From an uncultured bacterium (GTDB taxonomy: Bacteria; SAR324; NAC60-12), in NCBI GenBank assembly GCA_964010765.1, contig CAXGMD010000067.1, positions 1 through 19,023 on the forward strand: a DNA stretch of 19,023 nt, given 5' to 3'. The translations under genes were made by a program, and so were the position numbers. Every line of letters starts with the position of its first letter. The stretch's first letter is position 1. A model generated the notes under the pieces. It worked only from the letters and a program-made list of their open reading frames with translations, was not told the origin of the DNA and ran no database searches. This document shows, in pieces, positions 5,351-19,023 of this stretch.

Positions 5351-5873
5351 GTTTTCTCCTATTGCTTACTTGGAAAATAGAAAATTTCCTCGAAAAATCT
5401 TCCCACACACTACTAAAAAATGAGCAGAGTTTTGGAAGTAATGGAATATATATCAAACAAATAGATTTCGAAGTCAAGTCATCATAGTCTAAATTTGTTT
5501 TTGCTCTACAAACCAGATGAACTTAATTGAGTTATAGATGTATGAAAAAATTAGTTATGTTTTAATTCATACTCCATAGTTTTCTTTCATGATAAGAGTT
5601 TTGTCAACTATTTAACTAAGTAATTATTCTAGTAATTCAGTACTTTACCTTTTTATTAAGAATAAATATTTACCTGCAAAACACTGAAAAGCAACTAATT
5701 GCGCATTTAATTGTTAAATTGAAAAAACTTTTTAAATTTAATCTAAAAATCAATTATTTTTCAAATAATTTTGAAGAATTAAATTAATCTTTTTGACAGT
5801 AAAATAGGATAGCTGAGTCATTAGAAACCATTAATCAATTGGTCAAACGATGTCGCAACTAGGTCAAACATAA

Positions 5874-5928: not shown

Positions 5929-6273
5929 TCAGGTGCAGGGGAAGTCTTGAGCGAGGATTTCACGTACTAGACTGGCCGCATTGTATCGACGTAATTCGGG
6001 GCGCTCACTCAACATCTTGAGTAATTTTTTAGTTAGAAAAGCGCTTTGAGTATCTGGCGTGACACAGATTTTCGGATCTCGCAGCAATGAGGCTGTATCA
6101 ACGGCTCCAAGGACATAGAACTTAGCAGCTGCTCGTTGCCCCACATCATTTGAATTCAATAAAGCAAATAGTTGCTCTCCAGTCACAAATCGGGCTGCCT
6201 GGCCTGCTGAAAGACTACCCACTACCATAGTAAGAAAAAGTAGCAGTGACAAGGACTGTCTAATAATTGTCAT
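5929..6273 (-). CDS. Rap1a/Tai-immunity-like secreted protein
   Basis: Signal peptide followed by the TGEQL...YVLGAVD...ICVTP...PE....AASLV..IL...FPC pattern of the Rap1a family; ATGA overlap with the cytochrome gene. Confidence 0.7.
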   Translation of the reverse strand: MTIIRQSLSLLLFLTMVVGSLSAGQAARFVTGEQLFALLNSNDVGQRAAAKFYVLGAVDTASLLRDPKICVTPDTQSAFLTKKLLKMLSERPELRRYNAASLVREILAQDFPCT

Positions 6274-6836
6274 GGTCGATAAGCTTGAATCCTTATTGAA
6301 CTGTACCAGCCAATGATTTTTTTAGTTTCTTCATCGCTTAAATGGTTTGCAATTGCGACCATACTGGCGTCTAAGTGCTTACCGCCTTCACGCAACGCCC
6401 TAAGCCTATTCACCAAATAAAATTCTGGTTGCCCAGCTAGTGTGGGGGCTTGTGGATTTCTAGAAATCCCAATTAAGCCATGGCAAGCTGAGCAAGTCTG
6501 TGCTGCTTGCTCATTCTTCGTAGGGTTCCAATAAGTGACTTCTACATCAAGCGAATCATACCAGTCTGCTAGTTCTTGAATTTTACTGTCATCTAGACCT
6601 TGAGAAACAACATTCATAAGTTCGTGTTCCCGATGTCCATCTCGATATAATTTAAGTTGTTTTACTATGTAGTTCGGAGATAAGCCCGCCAGATTAGGGC
6701 TATCAGGTCTGGCAGATATACCGAGGGGACCATGGCACACAGCGCAATGTTTCATAGCGCTGAGCTCCCCACCGTAGTCAGCCAATACATTTTGAGAAAA
6801 GATGATCAGTATTAGCGGCCAGAGATAGAGCAGCAT
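6270..6836 (-). CDS. Dihaem cytochrome c (c4/c553 type)
   Basis: Signal peptide and two repeated domains with CAVCH and CSACH, PNLAG/PTLAG motifs and distal Met ligands (HELMN, DASMV). Confidence 0.93.
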   Translation of the reverse strand: MLLYLWPLILIIFSQNVLADYGGELSAMKHCAVCHGPLGISARPDSPNLAGLSPNYIVKQLKLYRDGHREHELMNVVSQGLDDSKIQELADWYDSLDVEVTYWNPTKNEQAAQTCSACHGLIGISRNPQAPTLAGQPEFYLVNRLRALREGGKHLDASMVAIANHLSDEETKKIIGWYSSIRIQAYRP

Positions 6837-6910
6837 TTGTGCTTATGATTGTAGATGTTTTGGTCCTCACAAAGGGACCCATTCTTTAGCAAAGCTTGAG
6901 CAAGAATCGA

Positions 6911-6940
6911 AGGCTCTCCGAAAAAAATTTCAAAGAGCCT
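6911..6940 (-). terminator. Intergenic hairpin downstream of the dehydrogenase gene
   Basis: Minus-strand RNA AGGCUCUUUGAAA-UUUU-UUUCGGAGAGCCU forms 13 bp including two G-U pairs that work only on this strand. Confidence 0.55.
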
Positions 6941-6959
6941 GCCTTAACAAATGAAAAGA

Positions 6960-8231
6960 TCAGTTACCGTAGCTGATACGGTAGATGGCACCTACGTAGT
7001 CATCGGAAACTAGCATTGACCCATCCTTCATCATCGCCACATCAACTGGGCGGCCTTTATAAATACCAGTTTCATCCAGCCATCCCTCAGCAAATACTTC
7101 GGACTGACCGGCGGTACCATCATCGTTCAAAGGAATGAAGTTGATCAGGGCCCCTGATGGCTCTGTTCGGTTCCAAGAACCATGGGAAGCTACAAATATA
7201 CCACCCCGATACTTGCTTGGAAATTTCTGACCAGTATAAAAAGCCATTCCCAGTTGAGCTTGGTGCGCCGGGAAATTGACCTGTGGAAACACCGCACCGA
7301 CTGGTTCAGCCATATCTGCCAAATCTGGTGCTGCCCCAGATCCAGCAACTTTGTAGTCGCCGTTCCAGTATGGGAAGCCAAAGTGCTCACCAATGGTAGT
7401 TGAACGATTTAGCTCTCCTGGAGGTACGTTATCACCCAATCCATCAACCTGATTATCTGTCCACCATAGTGTGCCATCTGCAGGGTTAAAGCCCATACCT
7501 ACCGAATTGCGGACACCGCGTGAGTAGACCTCTCGTCCACTTCCATCGAAAGGATCTAGACGGATAATTCCACCGATTCCAATCTCATCGTAGTAATCAA
7601 CCTTCGTCGCAGGCTGAACATTGTATGGCTGACCTAAAGTTACATAGAGCTTGCCATCTGGGCCCACTTCACAAGTTCTAGCACCATGATTAAATGATTC
7701 TTCGGACTCCGGAATCAGATTTCCTTGCGAGACCACTTCAATCACAGCAACGTCTGGGCTCTCATAGAAGAACTCTGCCGCTGGAAAATTAAGAATCCGA
7801 TTGTGCTCCACGATGATCAAAAAACCATCTGGTGTGAAACAAACAGCGTTGGGAACTTTTTTGCTAATGGAAGGTGCAAATTCTTTAACTTCGTCAGCGA
7901 TGCTGTCGCCGTTTCGGTCAGTTACGGCCCAGACAGAAGTTTTGCGTGTGCCAACAAATACCATATTAGTGGCAAGCCCCACTGCCATCTCTCGTGCGTC
8001 TGGTACTATCGCGTAAAGTTCAATGTTGAAGCCTGGTGGTAACTTTACCTTTTCCAAGTTAGCTCGAATCGCGTCGGCATTTCGGCCTTCCTGAGGGACA
8101 GTCGGAATATCTAAGCTGATGCCTGTCACTTTCACATTCTTCAGCTTTTCAAGATTGTCCATCGCAAAAGCAGTTCCGCTCAGCGCTAGCAATGCACTGG
8201 TCATCAGTGCAAATGATTTTGAGAATTTCAT
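6960..8231 (-). CDS. PQQ-dependent sugar / L-sorbosone dehydrogenase family beta-propeller protein
   Basis: Signal peptide; motifs KLPPGFNIELYA, GPDGKLYVTLG, GVRNSVG, PPGELN, AHQAQLGM, HGSWNR, GRPVDV and LVSDD..GAIYRISY; divergent from the pqq operon. Confidence 0.92.
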   Translation of the reverse strand: MKFSKSFALMTSALLALSGTAFAMDNLEKLKNVKVTGISLDIPTVPQEGRNADAIRANLEKVKLPPGFNIELYAIVPDAREMAVGLATNMVFVGTRKTSVWAVTDRNGDSIADEVKEFAPSISKKVPNAVCFTPDGFLIIVEHNRILNFPAAEFFYESPDVAVIEVVSQGNLIPESEESFNHGARTCEVGPDGKLYVTLGQPYNVQPATKVDYYDEIGIGGIIRLDPFDGSGREVYSRGVRNSVGMGFNPADGTLWWTDNQVDGLGDNVPPGELNRSTTIGEHFGFPYWNGDYKVAGSGAAPDLADMAEPVGAVFPQVNFPAHQAQLGMAFYTGQKFPSKYRGGIFVASHGSWNRTEPSGALINFIPLNDDGTAGQSEVFAEGWLDETGIYKGRPVDVAMMKDGSMLVSDDYVGAIYRISYGN

Positions 8232-8714: not shown

Positions 8715-9650
8715 ATGCATATACGCATTTTAGGCTCTGCAGCCGGTGGAGGCTTTCCTCAGTGGAACTGCAATCATCCAAACAGTCGCCGCGCACGTAG
8801 AAAAGATTTTACGGCTAGTCCTCGCACCCAATCCTCATTAGCAATTAGCTCTGACAGAGAGCACTGGTTCCTTTGCAATGCTTCTCCCGATCTGCGCCAA
8901 CAAATTAATGAAAATTTAATCCTCCAGCCCCAGCCTGACGGTCCATTGCGCGCTAGCCCTATTGCTGGTGTTGTGGTAACCAATGCAGATGTTGATCACA
9001 TTGCAGGCTTGCTCAACTTACGTGAGTCACAAGCATTACAGCTCTATGCTACCAGGCGAGTACTTGAGGTGCTTGCAGCAAATCCGATCTTCCAGGTGTT
9101 GAATCCTAAATTCGTGCAACGCCGACCTCTACAGCTAGAGCAGGATCATATGCTCCAGTTGCCCGATGGTAGCTCGAGTGGTTTATTAATTCGTCCTTTC
9201 GCAGTCCCCGGGAAAATTGCTCTGTGGTTGGAAGAAAAAGGCCAAGCAGTGCCAACTGATGCAATTCAGGAAGACACGATTGCCTTGGAAGGCAAAAGCG
9301 CAGACGGTAAGACTCTCTTCTTTTACATTCCCGGTTGTGCATCAATGCCCGAGTGGTTGCAAGAACGACTACAACATGCACCGCTGCTGCTCTTTGATGG
9401 CACCCTCTGGCAAGACAATGAAATGATTGTTTCAGGAGTGGGGCAAAAGACTGGTCAGAGAATGGGACACATGAGCTTATCTGGGCCGCAGGGTTCCATT
9501 GCGACCCTGCAAAATCTTGGAATTGAGCGAAAAATCTTTGTGCACTTGAATACGACCAATCCTGTGTTGCTAGAAGATTCGCCTGAGCGTGCTGAAGCTA
9601 CTGCAGCTGGATGGGAAATTGCCCACGATGGAATGGAATTGAGCCTATGA
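8715..9650 (+). CDS. pqqB: PQQ biosynthesis protein PqqB
   Basis: LGSAAGGGFPQWNC, RTQSS, NASPDLRQQI, MGHMS and HLNTTNP motifs. Confidence 0.97.
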   Translation: MHIRILGSAAGGGFPQWNCNHPNSRRARRKDFTASPRTQSSLAISSDREHWFLCNASPDLRQQINENLILQPQPDGPLRASPIAGVVVTNADVDHIAGLLNLRESQALQLYATRRVLEVLAANPIFQVLNPKFVQRRPLQLEQDHMLQLPDGSSSGLLIRPFAVPGKIALWLEEKGQAVPTDAIQEDTIALEGKSADGKTLFFYIPGCASMPEWLQERLQHAPLLLFDGTLWQDNEMIVSGVGQKTGQRMGHMSLSGPQGSIATLQNLGIERKIFVHLNTTNPVLLEDSPERAEATAAGWEIAHDGMELSL

Positions 9651-10477
9651 TTGTCGCAGCTTCCTTGATGCCCGCTGAACGACCTGAACTAGGGGGCATC
9701 ATACCCTATACTGAAGTTGAGTTTACAGAGCAACTGACCATGATTGGGGGGACTCGCTACCACAGCCTCCATCCCTTCCACCAGTTACTGCATAACGGCC
9801 TATTGCACCATGGACAGGTGCAAGCCTGGGCTCTCAACCGCTACTACTACCAGTGGTCCATACCGCGTAAAGACCTAGCACTAATGGCTCGGATTGATGA
9901 TCTTGAACTGCGTCGCGCCTGGCGAAGCCGAGTCATCGACCACGAAGGAGATCTCGACGGCGTCGGTGGAATCGCCCGCTATCTTCAATTGTGTGAGCGA
10001 TTAAGTCTTGATATAGACTATGTTCGCTCGCTCAAAGGGTTGTTACCAGCAACCCGCTTTGCTGTTGATGCTTACATCAATTTTGTCCAAAGCCGCTCTA
10101 CATTGGAAGCAATCGCCTCATCGCTGACAGAATTATATGCACCAGCGATTCATAAAGCACGAATTGCTGGGCTCTCGCAACACTATCCCTGGGCAGACGA
10201 CTACGCACTAGCATACTTCAAGAAGCGCATTGATGAGGCAACCCGGGATGTCGATTTCGGACGTGCTTGGATTCTGCAAAATGCTCGTACTCGTAGTCAG
10301 CAAGAAGCAGTATTAGATGCTGTCCGTTTTAAAACTGACGTACTCTGGTCACAGCTTGATGCGCTTTACTCAGCCTATGTTGCTCCAGCCTTTGTGCCAC
10401 CCGGATCTTTTCTCCCTTATGAACGTGGAACAAAACGTGGCTGGGAAAACTTTAACCCCTCTCAGGCTGGTGTTTGA
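9647..10477 (+). CDS. pqqC: PQQ synthase PqqC
   Basis: YHSLHPFH, WALNRYYYQ..IPRKD, TRFAVDAY, SSLTEL and FKTDVLWSQLDAL motifs. Start placed at the ATG overlapping the pqqB stop (ATGA 9647-9650). Confidence 0.96.
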   Translation: MIVAASLMPAERPELGGIIPYTEVEFTEQLTMIGGTRYHSLHPFHQLLHNGLLHHGQVQAWALNRYYYQWSIPRKDLALMARIDDLELRRAWRSRVIDHEGDLDGVGGIARYLQLCERLSLDIDYVRSLKGLLPATRFAVDAYINFVQSRSTLEAIASSLTELYAPAIHKARIAGLSQHYPWADDYALAYFKKRIDEATRDVDFGRAWILQNARTRSQQEAVLDAVRFKTDVLWSQLDALYSAYVAPAFVPPGSFLPYERGTKRGWENFNPSQAGV

Positions 10478-10764
10478 TGAGTGAGAGACTCCTGTTAATT
10501 GAGAAGCATGTCCCCAAATTGGCTCGCCATGCTAGGCTCCGCTTTGATCAAGCACGTAACCAATGGATTATCAACGCTCCAGAGCGAGTTTTTGAGTTAG
10601 ACGAAATTGCTGGCTTAGTACTTCAAAGATTAGATGGAATAAAGTCCCTGGGATTACTGTTCGATGATTTGTCTTCCGAATTCAGTGCACCCCGAGAAGT
10701 TATTCAGACTGATGTGTTAGCTCTACTACAACCACTCGCAGATAAGGGAATTCTAAAAATATGA
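10477..10764 (+). CDS. pqqD: PqqA-binding chaperone PqqD
   Basis: PKLARHARLRFD...W...APER...LD pattern; lies between pqqC and pqqE; TGATG overlap with pqqC (alternative TTG start at 10474). Confidence 0.94.
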   Translation: MSERLLLIEKHVPKLARHARLRFDQARNQWIINAPERVFELDEIAGLVLQRLDGIKSLGLLFDDLSSEFSAPREVIQTDVLALLQPLADKGILKI

Positions 10765-11879
10765 TGAAACCTGCCAGAGAAAACCTAATTCCATATGCAC
10801 TTCTGGCTGAGTTGACACACCGCTGCCCATTGCGCTGCCCCTACTGTTCAAATCCATTAGAGCTAGAGAGAGCAAGTGCGGAACTCTCAACAGATGAGTG
10901 GAAGCGGGTACTAGATGAGGCGGTAGCAATGGGTATGCTGCAGGTTCACTTTTCAGGTGGGGAACCAACAGTACGTCGTGATCTTGAAGTACTGATAGCT
11001 CATGCTGTTCAGATTGGTTTGTACACGAACTTGATCACTTCTGGGGTGTTGCTCAGTGAGAATCGTGTTGCAGCACTGGCTGAAGCTGGCTTAGATCACG
11101 TACAGATCAGCTTTCAAGATACCGAACCAGAAAACGCTGACCGTATCGCTGGATTTGCTGGCTACCACAAGAAAATAAAAGCCGCCTACTTGGTTCGACA
11201 GGAAGAGTTGCCACTAACTCTCAACGCTGTAATGCATCGCCAAAACCTTAGCCACCTACCACAAATAATTGAACTTGCTGTGAAGTTAGGTGCGGAACGG
11301 CTTGAGGTAGCCCAAGTACAGTATTACGGCTGGGCGTTAAAAAATCAGGGGGCTTTTTTGCCAACCCGCAAGCAATTGGATGAAGCCACCGAAATAGTGG
11401 AGTCTGCTCGAAAAAAATTGAGGGGCAGATTGGTAATCGACTACGTGGTGCCCGACTACTATGCCCGTCAACCTAAAAGCTGTATGGGCGGTTGGGGTCG
11501 TCGTTTTCTTAACGTTACCCCAGCCGGCAAAGTTCTACCTTGCCATGCTGCAGAGACGCTGAAGTTTCTTGAATTTGACAGCATTCGGGAACGTTCTTTG
11601 GCTTGGATCTGGGAAAATTCTAAGGCTTTTTTAGAATTTCGGGGAACAGCCTGGATGCCAGAGCCCTGCCGTAGCTGTCCCCAGCGTGAGGTTGATTGGG
11701 GGGGATGTCGCTGTCAGGCATTTGCCCTGACTGGTAAAGCGAATGTGACAGATCCCGCTTGTGAAAAATCGCCCGACCGGGATGTACTAAAGTTACCGCT
11801 CCAGACGGCACAAATCGAGGCGCCGGAATTTCTTTATCGGAGTTTCTCTCATGGCGGCGCCCTAACTTCGATAGATTGA
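10761..11879 (+). CDS. pqqE: Radical SAM/SPASM peptide cyclase PqqE
   Basis: ELTHRCPLRCPYCSNP (CxxxCxxC), FSGGEP, QYYGWA, CMGGWG and CRSC...GGCRCQA motifs. Confidence 0.97.
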   Translation: MMKPARENLIPYALLAELTHRCPLRCPYCSNPLELERASAELSTDEWKRVLDEAVAMGMLQVHFSGGEPTVRRDLEVLIAHAVQIGLYTNLITSGVLLSENRVAALAEAGLDHVQISFQDTEPENADRIAGFAGYHKKIKAAYLVRQEELPLTLNAVMHRQNLSHLPQIIELAVKLGAERLEVAQVQYYGWALKNQGAFLPTRKQLDEATEIVESARKKLRGRLVIDYVVPDYYARQPKSCMGGWGRRFLNVTPAGKVLPCHAAETLKFLEFDSIRERSLAWIWENSKAFLEFRGTAWMPEPCRSCPQREVDWGGCRCQAFALTGKANVTDPACEKSPDRDVLKLPLQTAQIEAPEFLYRSFSHGGALTSID

Positions 11880-14557: not shown

Positions 14558-15281
14558 GTCTTTCCAAGGGTTGAAGAACGCCCCACTCCAATGCCTGAAC
14601 AACAAGGATAAAGCTCAGGCTGTATGCCATCAGAGAAGCAACGTCGAATAATTGAAAATAAAAATGGATTTGGAACCCAATTCCTTCACTACGTCCCAAA
14701 AGTTCAACCACCAAAACAATTTTCCATATCAGTGAAAGTCCCGATCGGGCTGCTGCCATGGTATAGGGAACCAACTGTGGGACCCAGACATACCAGAACT
14801 GGTGCCAAACCGATAGTCGATAAGCTTTAGATAAATCATGGTATCTTGAATTAAAACTTCGGACTCCCTCGCGAAAGATAACCGCAACATTGGGGACTTT
14901 GTTGATAATTACTGCGGTCAGTGCTGCTGCTTCAATCAACCCTAACCAAAGGTAACAGAGAACAATCGTAACCAATGCAGGGATGTTTAGAAGGACGATC
15001 AACCACATGTCCAACCACGCATTGACACGGCGGCTGATTCCCATCCAAGAACCGAGCAGACTTCCGAGGGTCATCGCTACAAAAAAGCAAATAACAACTC
15101 TGCGTAGTGTCGCCCAAAGGTGTTTCCAAAGATCACCATCTGAGGCTTCGTGTATGAGGGAAGATAGAATATTGGAGGGAGGTGGCAACACCTGGCTTTG
15201 CTGCCACTGCGCGAGGACTTCCCAGAGGAACAACAAACTCAAGAGGCTGAGAATGTTGCTCCAGAAGCTTGAATTTTTCAC
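14520..15281 (-). CDS. ABC transporter permease, NitT/TauT family
   Basis: LPPPS, HLWATLRRV, LNIPALV and ARSGLSLIWKIVLVVELLG..GIG motifs; GTG start. Confidence 0.9.
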   Translation of the reverse strand: MKNSSFWSNILSLLSLLFLWEVLAQWQQSQVLPPPSNILSSLIHEASDGDLWKHLWATLRRVVICFFVAMTLGSLLGSWMGISRRVNAWLDMWLIVLLNIPALVTIVLCYLWLGLIEAAALTAVIINKVPNVAVIFREGVRSFNSRYHDLSKAYRLSVWHQFWYVWVPQLVPYTMAAARSGLSLIWKIVLVVELLGRSEGIGFQIHFYFQLFDVASLMAYSLSFILVVQALEWGVLQPLERRARRWQSSATTA

Positions 15282-15309
15282 GTGTGAATGGGCATCACCA
15301 ATTGATCAC

Positions 15310-16266
15310 TCAATCAAATTGCCAAAAGGTGCCCTGCATCAGTGTGCCACTTTCACCAGTGAGTTCTTTGCCACCATATTTGCCTAACTTCACGAATAAT
15401 ATTGCTGCGTCTTCTTGGTGAGCAATTGTAACTGGTTCTGGAATTCCATTTAAAAAACCTCTCTTCAGTTGTTGAAAGTGCTCTTCAGAGTTTGGCTTCA
15501 TTTTCTTGCGAAGGCGTTCCCAAGAGGCATCATCTTCTTGAAGCTTTTGCTTGGCTGCTGCTGAGGCTTTCGCCAATCCCTCTACCACTTTCGGGTTCTG
15601 GCGACCCCATTCTTCCATAAAGACATAGCCAATCATTGGAAGATTGGTCATCATTCCCAAATCTTTCTGAAGATCTGATAATTCTACCAAGCGATTCATA
15701 CCTTCTGCTTCCAGAGCAGCAGAAAAGTGCCAATATGTAATGACTGCGTCTAACCTGCCATTCATCAATTCCTTATTTAAGAGTGGCGGGGCACCATAGC
15801 TTGTTTCTACCCTGCCAAGATCCAACTGGTATTGGGGAGCAGCCGCTTGCAGAAGCAGCCAGCCTTTGCTCAGTGCACCACCCGCCACACCAACTTTCTT
15901 ACCTTCCAAATCTTTCAGGCTCTTGATGTTAGATTTTGGGTTCACCATCAATCCACCAACTGAGGAGGAGTAGGGAATAAAACTGTAATTTCTTCCCTTA
16001 GCTCGTTGACTGGAAACCCACATCCAATCAGCAACAGCTACATCAGCACCGCCGTTGAGCAGTGCCAATCTGGTAGCTGGCAAATTGGCCATCTTCACCA
16101 ACTCCATTTCAATTCCTGAACTTTTATCCAATCCGTAATGCTGGATGGTATCCAGTTCCCAGTTCACCGTGCCGTAGCTCAGTGTCGCCATTCTCAGTTT
16201 CTGCTCCGCTAATGCAACAGAACTAAGAGTAATCAAAATTATTATGCAAAGTAATTTCTTGCTCAT
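15310..16266 (-). CDS. ABC substrate-binding protein, NitT/TauT-like, PQQ-locus associated (candidate PqqT-type)
   Basis: Signal peptide; motifs GTVNWEL, DWMWV, PYSSSVGG, DLEGKKVGVAGG and GAPPLL; AGGGG RBS. Ligand assignment is inference. Confidence 0.85.
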   Translation of the reverse strand: MSKKLLCIIILITLSSVALAEQKLRMATLSYGTVNWELDTIQHYGLDKSSGIEMELVKMANLPATRLALLNGGADVAVADWMWVSSQRAKGRNYSFIPYSSSVGGLMVNPKSNIKSLKDLEGKKVGVAGGALSKGWLLLQAAAPQYQLDLGRVETSYGAPPLLNKELMNGRLDAVITYWHFSAALEAEGMNRLVELSDLQKDLGMMTNLPMIGYVFMEEWGRQNPKVVEGLAKASAAAKQKLQEDDASWERLRKKMKPNSEEHFQQLKRGFLNGIPEPVTIAHQEDAAILFVKLGKYGGKELTGESGTLMQGTFWQFD

Positions 16267-16580
16267 TTTTCCCCTTTCTGATCATTTCAAAGATTTCAGC
16301 TCTCCCCGGAACCAGAGAGTTTGGGCTACCAAAAAATTAAAGTTTATTTTGGTAAGTAAATTCATTCATATGACTTTATCATCATACACTAAATCAAACA
16401 AATATTTTGAAGCTACAGGACCATTCAACAGGACACACCCATTTCATCACAGTCGTCTCACTCAACTGTGGGTTTTAATAGATGGACCCAGTGGTAGTCA
16501 GTGTTGATGCAGAGCCAGAATAATTTGGTTTTAGACAACAAGGTATTTGGTGACAGGAGAGCATCAGTCAAAAAAGACAA

Positions 16581-17336
16581 ATGATCATGAAAACTTTTTT
16601 ACAATTCAAACTGATTTGGATCATACCATTTATTATCTACTTTCTGGGAGAGATTCTGCTGGCTTATGAACAGTCCGATCTTGATCGACTAGCCAGAACA
16701 AGAAAATGCATTGGCTGTGATTTTCGTGATGCCGATTTCAGCATGGGAAGCTTACTCAATCCAATTCTTGGACTTGCAGAGCTATTGGGAAGTGAACAAC
16801 GACGGGCAAGTCTTTTAGGCACTCTTATGGACGGAGCCGATTTACTTAAAACTGACCTGCAGCGAGTTGATGTGAGTCGGTCTGATTTTCGAGGGGCTCG
16901 ACTTCTAGGCGCAAATTTAGTGGGGACCTACATGGGGGAGGCAAATTTAAGTGGGGTTGATTTGAGGTTGGCTAATCTGCATGAAGTGAATCTACAAAAA
17001 GCGGATCTAAGCAACGCAAATTGCAGCGGCGCAAACATGTACGGAATCAATTTAGTGCAAGCAAAGCTGAAAGACGCAGATCTAAGTTTGGCGAACCTGC
17101 ACTTAGCTACTTTGCGGGAGGCTGATTTGAGCGGGGTGAATTTTCGAAGGGCAAACCTGAGTGGCGCAAACTTGAGTGGCGCAAACTTGCAAAAAACTAC
17201 TCTAGAAGGGGTAGATTTAAGTGGGGCTTATCTACGTGGAACCAATATCGATTTTGAAAGCCAAGTCAAGGATATTAGACTATGCAAAACGGTGATGCCT
17301 GATGGACAAATTAACAACCGAGATTGTGAAAAATGA
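16581..17336 (+). CDS. Secreted pentapeptide-repeat protein
   Basis: Hydrophobic N-terminus, CIGC cap, about 36 in-register A(D/N)LXX units and a C-terminal LCKTVMPDG...DC cap. Confidence 0.92.
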   Translation: MIMKTFLQFKLIWIIPFIIYFLGEILLAYEQSDLDRLARTRKCIGCDFRDADFSMGSLLNPILGLAELLGSEQRRASLLGTLMDGADLLKTDLQRVDVSRSDFRGARLLGANLVGTYMGEANLSGVDLRLANLHEVNLQKADLSNANCSGANMYGINLVQAKLKDADLSLANLHLATLREADLSGVNFRRANLSGANLSGANLQKTTLEGVDLSGAYLRGTNIDFESQVKDIRLCKTVMPDGQINNRDCEK

Positions 17337-17348
17337 ATTCTTGGATTT

Positions 17349-17513
17349 TCAATCCTTCAACTCAAACATCTCTTTAATTGCAAAAGAACTTTTTACAAAA
17401 ACTCTGTTCTGCAAAGTAACAAACTTCCCAATACCCAGGGTTTCACAATTCTTCCACACGTCGTTGTCAAACCACAAACTTCCCAATAGCTCCGCCTCTA
17501 TCGACCTCTTCAT
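17349..17513 (-). CDS. Possible 54-aa ORF just downstream of the TnpB-like gene
   Basis: ATG 5 nt after the TnpB-like stop; MKRSIEAELLGSLWFDNDVWKNCETLGIGKFVTLQNRVFVKSSFAIKEMFELKD* nearly fills the gap. No good RBS or recognised motif. Confidence 0.25.
   Translation of the reverse strand: MKRSIEAELLGSLWFDNDVWKNCETLGIGKFVTLQNRVFVKSSFAIKEMFELKD
17419..17488. repeat. 15-bp perfect direct repeat, two copies with a 40-nt spacer
   Basis: ACAAACTTCCCAATA at 17419-17433 and 17474-17488. Confidence 0.85.
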
Positions 17514-17518
17514 TGGGT

Positions 17519-18835
17519 TCAGGTGTACCTACTCAGTTCATTCTCTGAATGCTTGGCGCTTAGTGGAATTTGAGTAACATTGGCCAGAATCAGAGTCTCA
17601 AATCCACAAACATTGCAGCAAAAGCTATTCAAATTTCTCTGAACAAAACTTTTCACCCTACCACACTGACTACACCCCTGAGCTAATTCAGGGACCATGG
17701 CGAGGGTCAGTTCCCCACCGTGCCAATTCATTTTGTAGTCAAGTTGTTTAAGAAAATCGGCAACACCCAGCAAAGGTTCCGCAGAATCCACTGGACCACT
17801 TAATGCGCTCAAGTCTGTCACAACCAGTGATCGAAACCGAGAGGCCAGTTGATTGGTAATCTCATGACGCAACGATTTCAGCGCTTCAGCCCGCTTGTGC
17901 TGAAGCTTCGAAATTTGCTGACTTTGCTTTCTCCAGTTTTCTGAGAACTTATCTTTTCTTGCTAATTGGCGTCGCTTCTTAGCAATTTTTTGATCGACCA
18001 CTCGAACCAGGGTCCAAGTCCTATCCTGTTTGCCAGCTAGAGGATAAACAGTACCGTCTTGCAAGCTAACAGTGCTACCACTAAGAGTTACGAAACCAAT
18101 CTCTTCAGCAGCCGAGTGCCAATCGATATTCTCTTCCACTGTAAACCCGATATACCAATGTGCGTCGGATTCCTGAATTACCCGCTTTTGACCAATTTTG
18201 GCTGCCTCAGGAATCGGCCGATCCTGACGCATACGCATCAGACCTGGGCATTTTGGCATCCGAATTTCGGAGAAATAATCCTTACCACCGCAGGCCTTGG
18301 ACAAAGATTTGATGCTGACATCGTTCGGCTTCCAAAGAATTGAAAGGTGCGATTTGCGGCGTGGTACAGGGTAACCAAATGAATTTTTCGAAGCCTCCGA
18401 AATTTTCTTACCATTGCGTACACGACGATAAAAGTGCTGGAAGGCTTGGTGCAGGTCAACAACTAGCGCATTTTGCAGGCAACTGAATGGGATTTCTTTC
18501 ATCCAATCCGTTTGCCTACGCAATGCCGTCAACTCTTTACTCTGCTTCTGCCCAGTGATCATGTGCTTGATAGGTCTTGTCGAGGAATCGCTCCCAAGCG
18601 AAAATTGCTTGGCCAATGATTGCTTCTCCTCACTCTCATCTTTCTGCTGCTGGAATTCTGACAAACGTTGCTGGTGAAGCTCGTACAAACTAGGCAGTTT
18701 ATCATTCCTAGCCAAGCTTCTTTGCTGAAGCCCTAGATTGTAAATGTATCTACAACCCATTCCCACACGCAAAAGATATTTCTTCTGTTGAGGTGTAGGC
18801 TCTAGTCTGTATCTATATACTCGAGATACAATCAT
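17519..18835 (-). CDS. tnpB: IS200/IS605 TnpB-family protein, predicted nuclease-dead (TldR-like)
   Basis: N-terminal YRYRLEPTPQQ...CRYIYNLGL, ELTALRR..WMKE, WYIGFTVE, basic RRQLARK..SENWRK, FLKQLDYK..W.G and Zn finger CSQC/CNVC. The RuvC acidic triad is replaced. Confidence 0.88.
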   Translation of the reverse strand: MIVSRVYRYRLEPTPQQKKYLLRVGMGCRYIYNLGLQQRSLARNDKLPSLYELHQQRLSEFQQQKDESEEKQSLAKQFSLGSDSSTRPIKHMITGQKQSKELTALRRQTDWMKEIPFSCLQNALVVDLHQAFQHFYRRVRNGKKISEASKNSFGYPVPRRKSHLSILWKPNDVSIKSLSKACGGKDYFSEIRMPKCPGLMRMRQDRPIPEAAKIGQKRVIQESDAHWYIGFTVEENIDWHSAAEEIGFVTLSGSTVSLQDGTVYPLAGKQDRTWTLVRVVDQKIAKKRRQLARKDKFSENWRKQSQQISKLQHKRAEALKSLRHEITNQLASRFRSLVVTDLSALSGPVDSAEPLLGVADFLKQLDYKMNWHGGELTLAMVPELAQGCSQCGRVKSFVQRNLNSFCCNVCGFETLILANVTQIPLSAKHSENELSRYT

Positions 18836-18845
18836 TTCCAGCGAT

Positions 18846-18953
18846 TTGACAGGGATGTGGGATATGGGTTCCTGCTTCGACGAAATAGAGCAATTCGGCT
18901 AAGAATCGACTTACGTTTTCTCCACAGGCGTAAATTCCGATGGTTTTCACCGT
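18846..18953 (-). ncRNA. Putative omegaRNA/guide-RNA scaffold upstream of the TnpB-like gene
   Basis: Minus strand: hairpin CGGTG-AAAAC-CATCG, then GGAATTTACGCCTGTGGAG...GTAAG, inner hairpin CGATTC/GAATTG, then TCGAAGCAGGAA and a terminal TGTCAA. This is the motif order of IS605 right-end RNAs; CCUGU can pair with GCAGG. Boundaries are approximate. Confidence 0.7.
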
Positions 18954-19023
18954 ATAATTTATTAAATATTCATAATTTTTTCTGAAAATCAACCATTTAG
19001 TTAATATAAATTAAAAAAAAGTA

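Follow-up and report, generated by a model that had tools for sequence, protein, structure and literature searches.

An intact but nuclease-dead TnpB homologue with conserved non-coding flanks in an uncultured marine SAR324 bacterium

Introduction

Can a TnpB protein that has lost the catalytic residues of its RuvC site be kept for another task, and if so, for which? This question is raised by a gene in a 19,023-nt stretch of DNA, hereafter the window, from contig CAXGMD010000067.1 (assembly GCA_964010765.1) of an uncultured marine bacterium from the SAR324 lineage (NAC60-12). A first-pass annotation of the window had described this gene as an uninterrupted frame for a TnpB-type protein devoid of its three acidic active-site residues, and had proposed it to be a domesticated, RNA-guided regulator beside a pyrroloquinoline quinone (PQQ) island.

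Nuclease-dead derivatives of TnpB are known as TldRs. In the TldR preprint, the name is given to TnpB-like proteins that keep at most one of the D-E-D residues, and 506 such proteins of polyphyletic origin are reported, with three clades studied. According to the same preprint, the studied clades have no tnpA or transposon ends and have kept a partner gene, while their downstream guide RNAs were found via covariance models and carry guides that match promoters next to a transposon-adjacent motif (TAM). A 2026 preprint describes nuclease-dead TnpB clades as mostly of unknown role.

Results

The frame was intact as annotated, with 438 residues, and lies on the minus strand, which the first-pass annotation had not stated. 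In the following, P0001 is the window protein, further P-numbers are homologous proteins, L-numbers are loci, and G000 is the source organism's own assembly (3.86 Mb, 92.4% complete). The closest relatives of P0001 form a sister clade, the cluster of P0003 (442 aa, 275 members), which is 70% identical to P0001 over 425 aa. We read the catalytic columns from a 57-sequence MAFFT alignment, in which 54 sequences fall outside the nuclease-dead clade:

17519..18835, minus strand: TnpB-like open reading frame (P0001) with a dead RuvC site, 438 aa, ATG to TGA, zero internal stops
18086..18088, minus strand: codon of T250 in the RuvC-I column, D in 51/54 others, also T in the sister clade
17816..17818, minus strand: codon of T340 in the RuvC-II column, E in 52/54 others, also T in the sister clade
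17585..17587, minus strand: codon of L417 in the RuvC-III column, D in 50/54 others, E in the sister clade
17606..17674, minus strand: zinc-ribbon region with C388, C391, C407 and C410, four invariant columns of the 57-sequence alignment

P0001 thus keeps none of the three catalytic residues and the sister clade at most one (the glutamate at position III), so that the loss of all three acidic residues described earlier holds for the window's clade and not for its sister. At RuvC-I, the annotated change from D to V249 reflects an alignment without gaps; MAFFT takes F248 for an insertion and therefore aligns T250 to this column, the residue being non-acidic under either alignment. The other two assignments, T340 and L417, were confirmed, and HMMER likewise placed T340 in the RuvC-II glutamate column of ISDra2 TnpB. 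The first-pass annotation had allowed that a proper alignment might bring back a D-E-D triad, and MAFFT recovered none in P0001. About 15 residues between RuvC-II and the next helix are, in addition, deleted from P0001 as compared with P0032-P0035. Four of the 54 other sequences also have catalytic columns that differ from D-E-D (P0094 ARG, P0074 HQE, P0077 HEE, P0044 DEQ), and judged by these residues they may be further dead or rearranged lineages.

Outside the active site, the domain order of the TnpB/OrfB_IS605 superfamily (helix-turn-helix (HTH), OrfB, zinc ribbon) is present in P0001. Pfam matched HTH_OrfB_IS605 to residues 1-40 (E 1.7e-9) and OrfB_IS605 to residues 282-343 (E 5.2e-9), both above cut-off, and Cas12f1-like_TNB to residues 360-413 with 24.3 bits, just below the cut-off of 26.3. 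The NCBIfam TnpB models span P0001 end to end (E 1e-27), yet far under their own cut-offs, and the best natural sequence match in the PDB by HMMER was ISDra2 TnpB (8bf8, E 4.2e-9). All four zinc ligands named by the first-pass annotation are kept. That annotation had also suggested superposing a predicted structure on ISDra2 TnpB; an AlphaFold2 model fed with the 57-sequence alignment (mean predicted local distance difference test score 88, predicted template modelling score 0.81) had as its top Foldseek match the ISDra2 TnpB-omegaRNA-DNA complex (8h1j_A, E 2.6e-18, TM 0.71 on the target). The top matches were TnpB and Cas12f complexes, and the model predicts the bilobed TnpB fold, with its RNA-binding lobes confidently predicted.

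Close relatives of the protein are few. A word-indexed search of 5.8 billion proteins returned four matches (its own cluster, the P0003 cluster and two distant TnpBs), and an exhaustive HMMER search gave 2134 matches at E ≤0.001, just 8 of them at E ≤1e-30. The exact P0001 protein is on record on 64 contigs, and in the phage and plasmid collections every relative was less than 30% identical. P0032-P0035, the full-length proteins closest to P0001 (29-38% identity), all retain D-E-D. In a quick IQ-TREE tree with support from the Shimodaira-Hasegawa-like approximate likelihood-ratio test (a slower, careful search did not finish), the dead proteins formed one clade (support 100) on a stem of 1.24 changes per site, within a clade of support 99 that also holds these four D-E-D proteins. 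Because the dead clade nests among D-E-D relatives, its inactivation was independent. Among 60 genomes besides G000, five were matched at E ≤0.001, the family itself being found in G003 only, which is one of eight genomes of the same genus and holds a sister-clade copy (E 1.3e-135); the remaining four gave distant TnpB matches (E 1e-4 to 1e-13). A decayed copy of a P0032-like TnpB was seen in the same bacterial family (L050, G019:C58), where an internal deletion joins residues 16-64 to 311-439.

Was the gene kept by selection once the triad was gone? Between the window and the intact sister genes L015 and L016, the proportions of non-synonymous and synonymous differences were 0.18 (pN) and 0.71 (pS, saturated), which corresponds to a ratio of non-synonymous to synonymous change (omega) of ~0.09 by Jukes-Cantor and at most 0.26 from raw proportions. 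Since threonines at positions I and II are common to both clades, the inactivation, or at least two of its three losses, most simply predates their split, and the selection seen between the clades therefore acted on an already dead nuclease. Between L015 and L016 themselves, we counted 19 synonymous and 17 non-synonymous changes, an omega of 0.25 that departs from neutrality with p = 8e-5. For three flanking genes we obtained an omega of 0.05-0.25, and for intact versus broken sister copies 0.29-0.79 overall, with 0.49-0.61 for the full-length or heavily broken copies (L017, L019, L024, L025) and 0.29, 0.31 and 0.79 for partial copies (L020, L021, L022). In the window's own 90%-identity cluster, 9/9 full-length (438-aa) members are intact, among 13 members listed. 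The first-pass annotation had named multi-copy active insertion sequences with dN/dS near 1 as an outcome that would speak against its proposal; here one copy of the gene was found, and the comparison of the two clades gave an omega clearly under 1. With an intact frame, purifying selection after triad loss and a single copy, the domestication that had been proposed is likely.

The two clades share more than the coding region, namely a unit with sharp borders at ~18950 and ~17400 that includes non-coding DNA on both sides of the gene:

18836..18955, minus strand: conserved 5' non-coding block, 93% identical to the sister clade over 18907-18946
17400..17518, minus strand: conserved 3' non-coding flank, candidate diverged guide-RNA scaffold, 62-77% identical to the sister clade
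17474..17488, minus strand: direct repeat R1, 15 nt, identical to R2, present in both clades
17419..17433, minus strand: direct repeat R2, 15 nt, starting 55 nt downstream of R1
17385..17404, minus strand: putative guide position, assuming a scaffold that runs up to the last conserved base

Both flanks are far better conserved between the clades than the (saturated) synonymous sites, and unrelated flanking DNA aligns at 28-53% as against the 93% of the first 40 nt of the 5' block. This block is predicted to form several stems, and its central hairpin keeps its pairing via two compensatory pairs. It does not resemble the DNA that precedes the gene in active relatives, and could represent a promoter, a 5' leader or a former left end. 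On the 3' side, a consensus fold from 17615 to 17398 (last zinc-finger codons to second repeat) comprises 48 pairs, five of which are changed on both sides, a number reached by 0/500 shuffles (1.0 +/- 0.8) and compared with 0-1 in slid controls. Within this flank, identical repeats of 15-17 nt start 55 nt apart in both clades (the L015 copies at 5738 and 5793). The next base after the 14-nt core that they share is T in the window (both copies) and G in the sister clade (both copies), and the motif has no further occurrence in G000. Where broken loci still have the flank, the repeats are imperfect in four of five (L017, L019, L024, L025), the exception being a remnant in G005.

Other signals were sought in and around the unit. 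No complementarity of at least 8 nt was found between its left and right ends, and a promoter and terminator consensus scan of 17200-19023 gave nothing beyond shuffle expectation. An Rfam scan of 16000-19023 returned one sub-threshold snoRNA-like match, located elsewhere in the stretch. A small open reading frame in the 3' flank was rejected, as the repeats lie in different frames and in the sister clade the only start codon there would be an internal TTG, ATG and GTG both being absent. From the DNA 5' of the conserved block, compared between the window, sister-clade loci and L013 (a longer contig of the window's own clade with a 17-kb locus), no TAM could be read because these 5' flanks differ from one another.

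The unit is also found in RNA libraries. Thirteen RNA runs on record hold part of the stretch, and in the contigs of four RNA-library runs from three studies 14/15 pieces lie within 17211-18948, with upstream ends at 18920, 18922, 18935 and 18948 inside the conserved 5' block. The remaining piece, at 15915-16128, is the one piece in 15000-17210, where the gap is no evidence that neighbouring genes are silent.

As a reference for the 3' flank, we used active relatives from the same bacterial family (L049 on G015:C318; L051-L053 in G073, where they are multi-copy). They belong to the same TnpB sub-group as P0001 and have an N-terminal insertion in common with it, but unlike the window clade they retain D-E-D and a structured omegaRNA of 155 nt. 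In L049, L051 and L053, this RNA has seven covarying pairs and ends in a 9-bp hairpin ahead of the point where the copies diverge. A covariance model built from these three, whose proteins are ~26-29% identical to P0001, scored 127-186 bits on five loci (the three source loci, one duplicate locus and the related copy L052, 127 bits) and still detected L004 and L008, identical TnpB copies with ~25% identity to P0032 (32 bits, E 3e-5). In L052 (G073:C23, ~650-810), the terminal hairpin is split by a ~160-nt insertion with inverted ends, resembling a miniature inverted-repeat transposable element. L049 and L004/L008 appear to carry a divergent tnpA upstream, as seen by eye in the sequence with no search made.

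Turning to the window's own genome, G000 holds one copy of the gene, and both flanks are single-copy as well. As annotated, there is no tnpA within the 19,023 nt, and no Y1 transposase (PF01797) was found in the whole 92.4%-complete assembly by a search that was positive in 6/14 control genomes. The GC content of 0.456 is unremarkable next to the genome's 0.464, and no tRNA that could anchor an island was found in L013.

The window clade sits between an opp-type ABC operon (SBP_bac_5, two permeases, ATPase; visible on L013 and G000:C34 only) and a pentapeptide-repeat gene, followed by ABC-transporter and pqqBCDE genes. The sister clade lies inside a flagellar cluster, where FliD, two FliS and three other genes come before the element and a GNAT gene, two unknown genes and two flagellins come after it. 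The element there has an ATP-grasp gene on one side and GNAT and flagellin genes on the other. Because the two clades occupy different loci (opp/pentapeptide versus flagellar cluster), the PQQ neighbourhood is incidental. The PQQ island of the first-pass annotation does exist, with pqqB/C/D/E-like genes at 8715-11879, but ~5.6 kb with four ABC-transporter genes and the pentapeptide gene separates it from the TnpB-like frame. Likewise, the suggested independent clade linked to PQQ/pentapeptide genes stands as regards its independent inactivation and falls as regards the gene link.

In the sister clade, diverged lineages carry the element, or in G005 its remnant, at one syntenic site, a pattern that resembles simple vertical descent. 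The ATP-grasp gene that flanks this site is 97% identical between G000 (contig C131) and L015 while the synonymous sites of the elements are saturated, so the elements are either old paralogues or one of them arrived by transfer. DNA searches with L013:3800-12000, which covers the element, the pentapeptide gene and DNA further downstream, did not recover this stretch in G005, G007 and G008 (99, 80 and 93% complete), all of which carry the opp flank at 92-95% identity. Contig C131 ends (7143) ~1.1 kb before the site of the sister-clade element in close relatives, so that G000 may or may not carry a sister-clade copy beyond this break; C34 ends (33691) between the opp operon and the window.

Some further features of the neighbourhoods were recorded. 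The oppA-like frame of 662 aa at L013 3813-5801 is probably over-extended at its 5' end, with a signal-peptide-like stretch beginning ~110-130 codons in. Just upstream of pqqBCDE, window 5929-8231 encodes a Rap1a-immunity-like small protein, a di-haem cytochrome c and a GSDH-type (PQQ-dependent-like) dehydrogenase. In the flagellar cluster, tandem FliS paralogues lie beside FliD at L016 1468-2571, and two flagellin genes follow downstream in L015.

Discussion

From its sequence, P0001 is a member of the known nuclease-dead TnpB (TldR-like) kind, and its gene, kept by selection after loss of the cutting residues, probably does a new job. RNA-guided repression is a plausible candidate for that job. 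The reading that we tentatively put first, at somewhat less than an even chance, is that of an exapted TldR-like TnpB for which we infer RNA binding, DNA targeting and repression. In this scenario, the protein would descend from an IS200/IS605 TnpB, RuvC residues I and II and a loop beside the active site would have been lost before the two known clades split, and a single copy of the gene, whose product folds and binds zinc, would have been preserved ever since, together with a conserved 5' leader and an RNA-like 3' flank of its own. RNA made from this 3' flank would then direct DNA binding without cleavage, and the bound protein would block transcription at a target.

Like TldRs, P0001 is of TnpB ancestry and has 0/3 D-E-D residues, which places it within the definition of fewer than two. 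Its gene is single-copy and chromosomal with no tnpA found, its clade is an independent inactivation nested among active TnpBs, and a conserved non-coding stretch lies downstream. The neighbourhoods even happen to include an opp-type ABC operon (window clade) and flagellin genes (sister clade). In contrast to TldRs, P0001 keeps its zinc finger and full length, many sister-clade copies are pseudogenes, no TAM-flanked promoter target was found for the window clade, and the host is an uncultured marine bacterium rather than one of the Enterobacteriaceae, enterococci or clostridia. Judged by title and abstract opening, no marine-bacterial clade like the window's is described among the TldR papers listed, and the published list of 506 proteins may include it. 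P0001 shares the domain order and fold of ISDra2 TnpB (PDB 8h1j, 8bf8, 8exa), including the HTH, OrfB and zinc-ribbon Pfam matches, and differs from canonical IS200/IS605 TnpB in having no triad, tnpA, multi-copy spread or recognisable omegaRNA.

Cas12k and Cas12m are RNA-guided, nuclease-deficient Cas12 relatives used for binding, and dCas12f-like proteins reportedly act as transcription activators. With these P0001 has in common a TnpB-descended scaffold without target DNA cleavage, and Cas12m2 and a dCas12f were among its fold matches. It differs from them in that there is no CRISPR array, only two 15-nt repeats 55 nt apart, and in that the window showed neither Tn7-like nor sigma-factor partner genes. 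The fold matches to these proteins were weaker than those to TnpB.

Several results weigh against the proposed regulator. First among them is the guide RNA itself. The omegaRNA model was unmatched in the window, L013 and seven sister-clade loci, and with filters off it gave ≤4 bits in the window and L015. Inspection by eye shows no 5' arm of the terminal hairpin in the window flank. As the model finds nothing, the ancestral omegaRNA is gone or unrecognisable, and the window flank differs here from published TldR guides, which are recognised by guide-RNA models of related TnpBs. The five compensatory pairs of the 3' fold all come from the single contrast between window and sister clade, with the structure predicted on the same alignment. 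The RNA-library evidence consists of contigs from runs chosen for holding the stretch, and carries no strand, transcript ends or level.

Target searches yielded no match above chance. Inter-clade conservation stops near 17405, and we scanned the stretch after the last conserved base as 12-mers, 16-mers with ≤1 mismatch and 20-mers with ≤3 mismatches. Against the bacterium's own genome, the putative guide gave chance-level matches only, the best of 12-14 nt. The longest genome-wide match (14 nt) lies inside a coding region on C114, as does a 15-mer match on C4, and both were rejected. A 15-mer match in the pentapeptide gene (window 16779-16793) scored 31, a score reached by 13/300 dinucleotide shuffles, and an oppA-like 12-mer scored 24, under the shuffle mean of 25.6 (300 dinucleotide shuffles, L013 locus); as evidence both were rejected, and they stand only as leads. 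The putative guide of the sister clade gave no consistent match to its own loci, flagellin promoters included. The TldR preprint mentions guides as short as 9 nt, lengths that the present scans cannot resolve. The first-pass claim of an RNA-guided regulator was therefore not borne out, with neither a match to the omegaRNA model nor a guide-target pair above chance.

Two observations were made alongside these scans. The oppA-like site is a 12-nt exact match of G000:C34:32588-32599 (L013 5346-5357) to the first bases past the conserved 3' flank; it lies just after the signal-peptide-like stretch and is conserved in four relatives without the element, and it is not above chance. The R1 region (17460-17495, minus strand) matches 16776-16810 (plus strand) in 17/18 nt, at codons 66-71 of the pentapeptide gene, and the likeness resumes after a ~10-nt gap.

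The regulator reading is also strained by genomic context and decay. The two clades have zero neighbouring genes in common and, unlike the studied TldRs, no stable clade-specific partner gene. Spread is patchy, most of the same-genus genomes searched having no copy. The window and L013, of the same clade, differ by one synonymous and one non-synonymous change, so that recent selection on the window's own lineage is not measurable. In-frame stops or frameshifts interrupt 10/12 sister-clade loci (L011 and L015-L025 counted, L013/L014 excluded), only L015 and L016 being intact; some of these contigs are partial, and single frameshifts could be assembly error. The lesions sit at differing places in differing sub-lineages, and in G005, a more distant member of the genus, a deletion remnant alone occupies the sister-clade site. 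With so many loci broken, the function, if any, is dispensable.

This decay leads to the strongest of the alternatives, which we regard as unlikely: that the gene is a relic, once selected through domestication or otherwise, now dispensable and decaying, with the window copy simply unhit so far. The variously placed lesions in 10/12 sister-clade loci and the G005 remnant fit such a relic, as do the loss of the canonical omegaRNA, the failure to find a target and the patchy distribution. It accords poorly with the low omega between clades and between the two intact copies (0.25), with the intactness of all nine full-length proteins among the listed members of the window's cluster, with flanks conserved beyond synonymous sites, and with the presence of the locus in RNA libraries of three studies.

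A second alternative, which we consider improbable, is a non-autonomous mobile or recently transferred element whose 5' and 3' blocks are transposon ends, the dead TnpB being carried along, perhaps as a non-cutting helper. It would explain why the common unit is so sharply bordered, why the clades sit at different loci while the ATP-grasp genes are 97% identical and the element's synonymous sites saturated, which would mean that one copy at least has moved or been transferred, and why the window-clade unit sits at one edge of a block that DNA searches did not detect in G005, G007 and G008; pairing kept by compensatory change in the 5' hairpin would also be expected of a transposase-binding DNA hairpin. 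An element of this kind is harder to reconcile with a genome in which no Y1 transposase was found, with one copy per genome and single-copy ends that are unlike those of active relatives, with a GC content equal to the genome's, and with a sister clade that stays at one syntenic site across diverged lineages down to the G005 remnant.

The last alternative, a new guide-free role such as binding of the two 15-nt repeats in the protein's own 3' flank or acting on RNA, has a slim chance in our judgement: the 55-nt spacing in both clades, the concerted change of base (G in the sister clade, T here), the imperfect repeats in four of five broken loci and the absence of a canonical omegaRNA suit it, but the whole TnpB fold including its RNA-binding lobes is confidently predicted, the repeat pattern is backed by two or three independent lineages only, and gene conversion between the repeats could equally explain the concerted change.

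The preferred reading of a TldR-like regulator with a 3'-flank RNA can be taken one step further, although this is a long shot. The lineage might have dropped the ancestral omegaRNA and built a new 3' RNA on the two co-evolving 15-17-nt repeats, either as a proto-array of two repeat-guide units or as a guide plus a self-target 55 nt downstream. If true, such a repeat-based 3' RNA would be an intermediate from a fixed-guide TnpB towards an array-guided effector, in a nuclease-dead protein.

The host is an abundant uncultured marine bacterium, and TnpB is known to have given rise to nuclease-dead derivatives on many occasions. A natural comparison is at hand: close relatives carry intact and decayed copies at one and the same site, and a paralogue occupies a second one. 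If P0001 does not bind an RNA from its 3' flank, then a dead triad, an intact frame and a low dN/dS would be insufficient to call a TnpB homologue an RNA-guided regulator; if it does bind such an RNA, guide RNAs can be remodelled after domestication.

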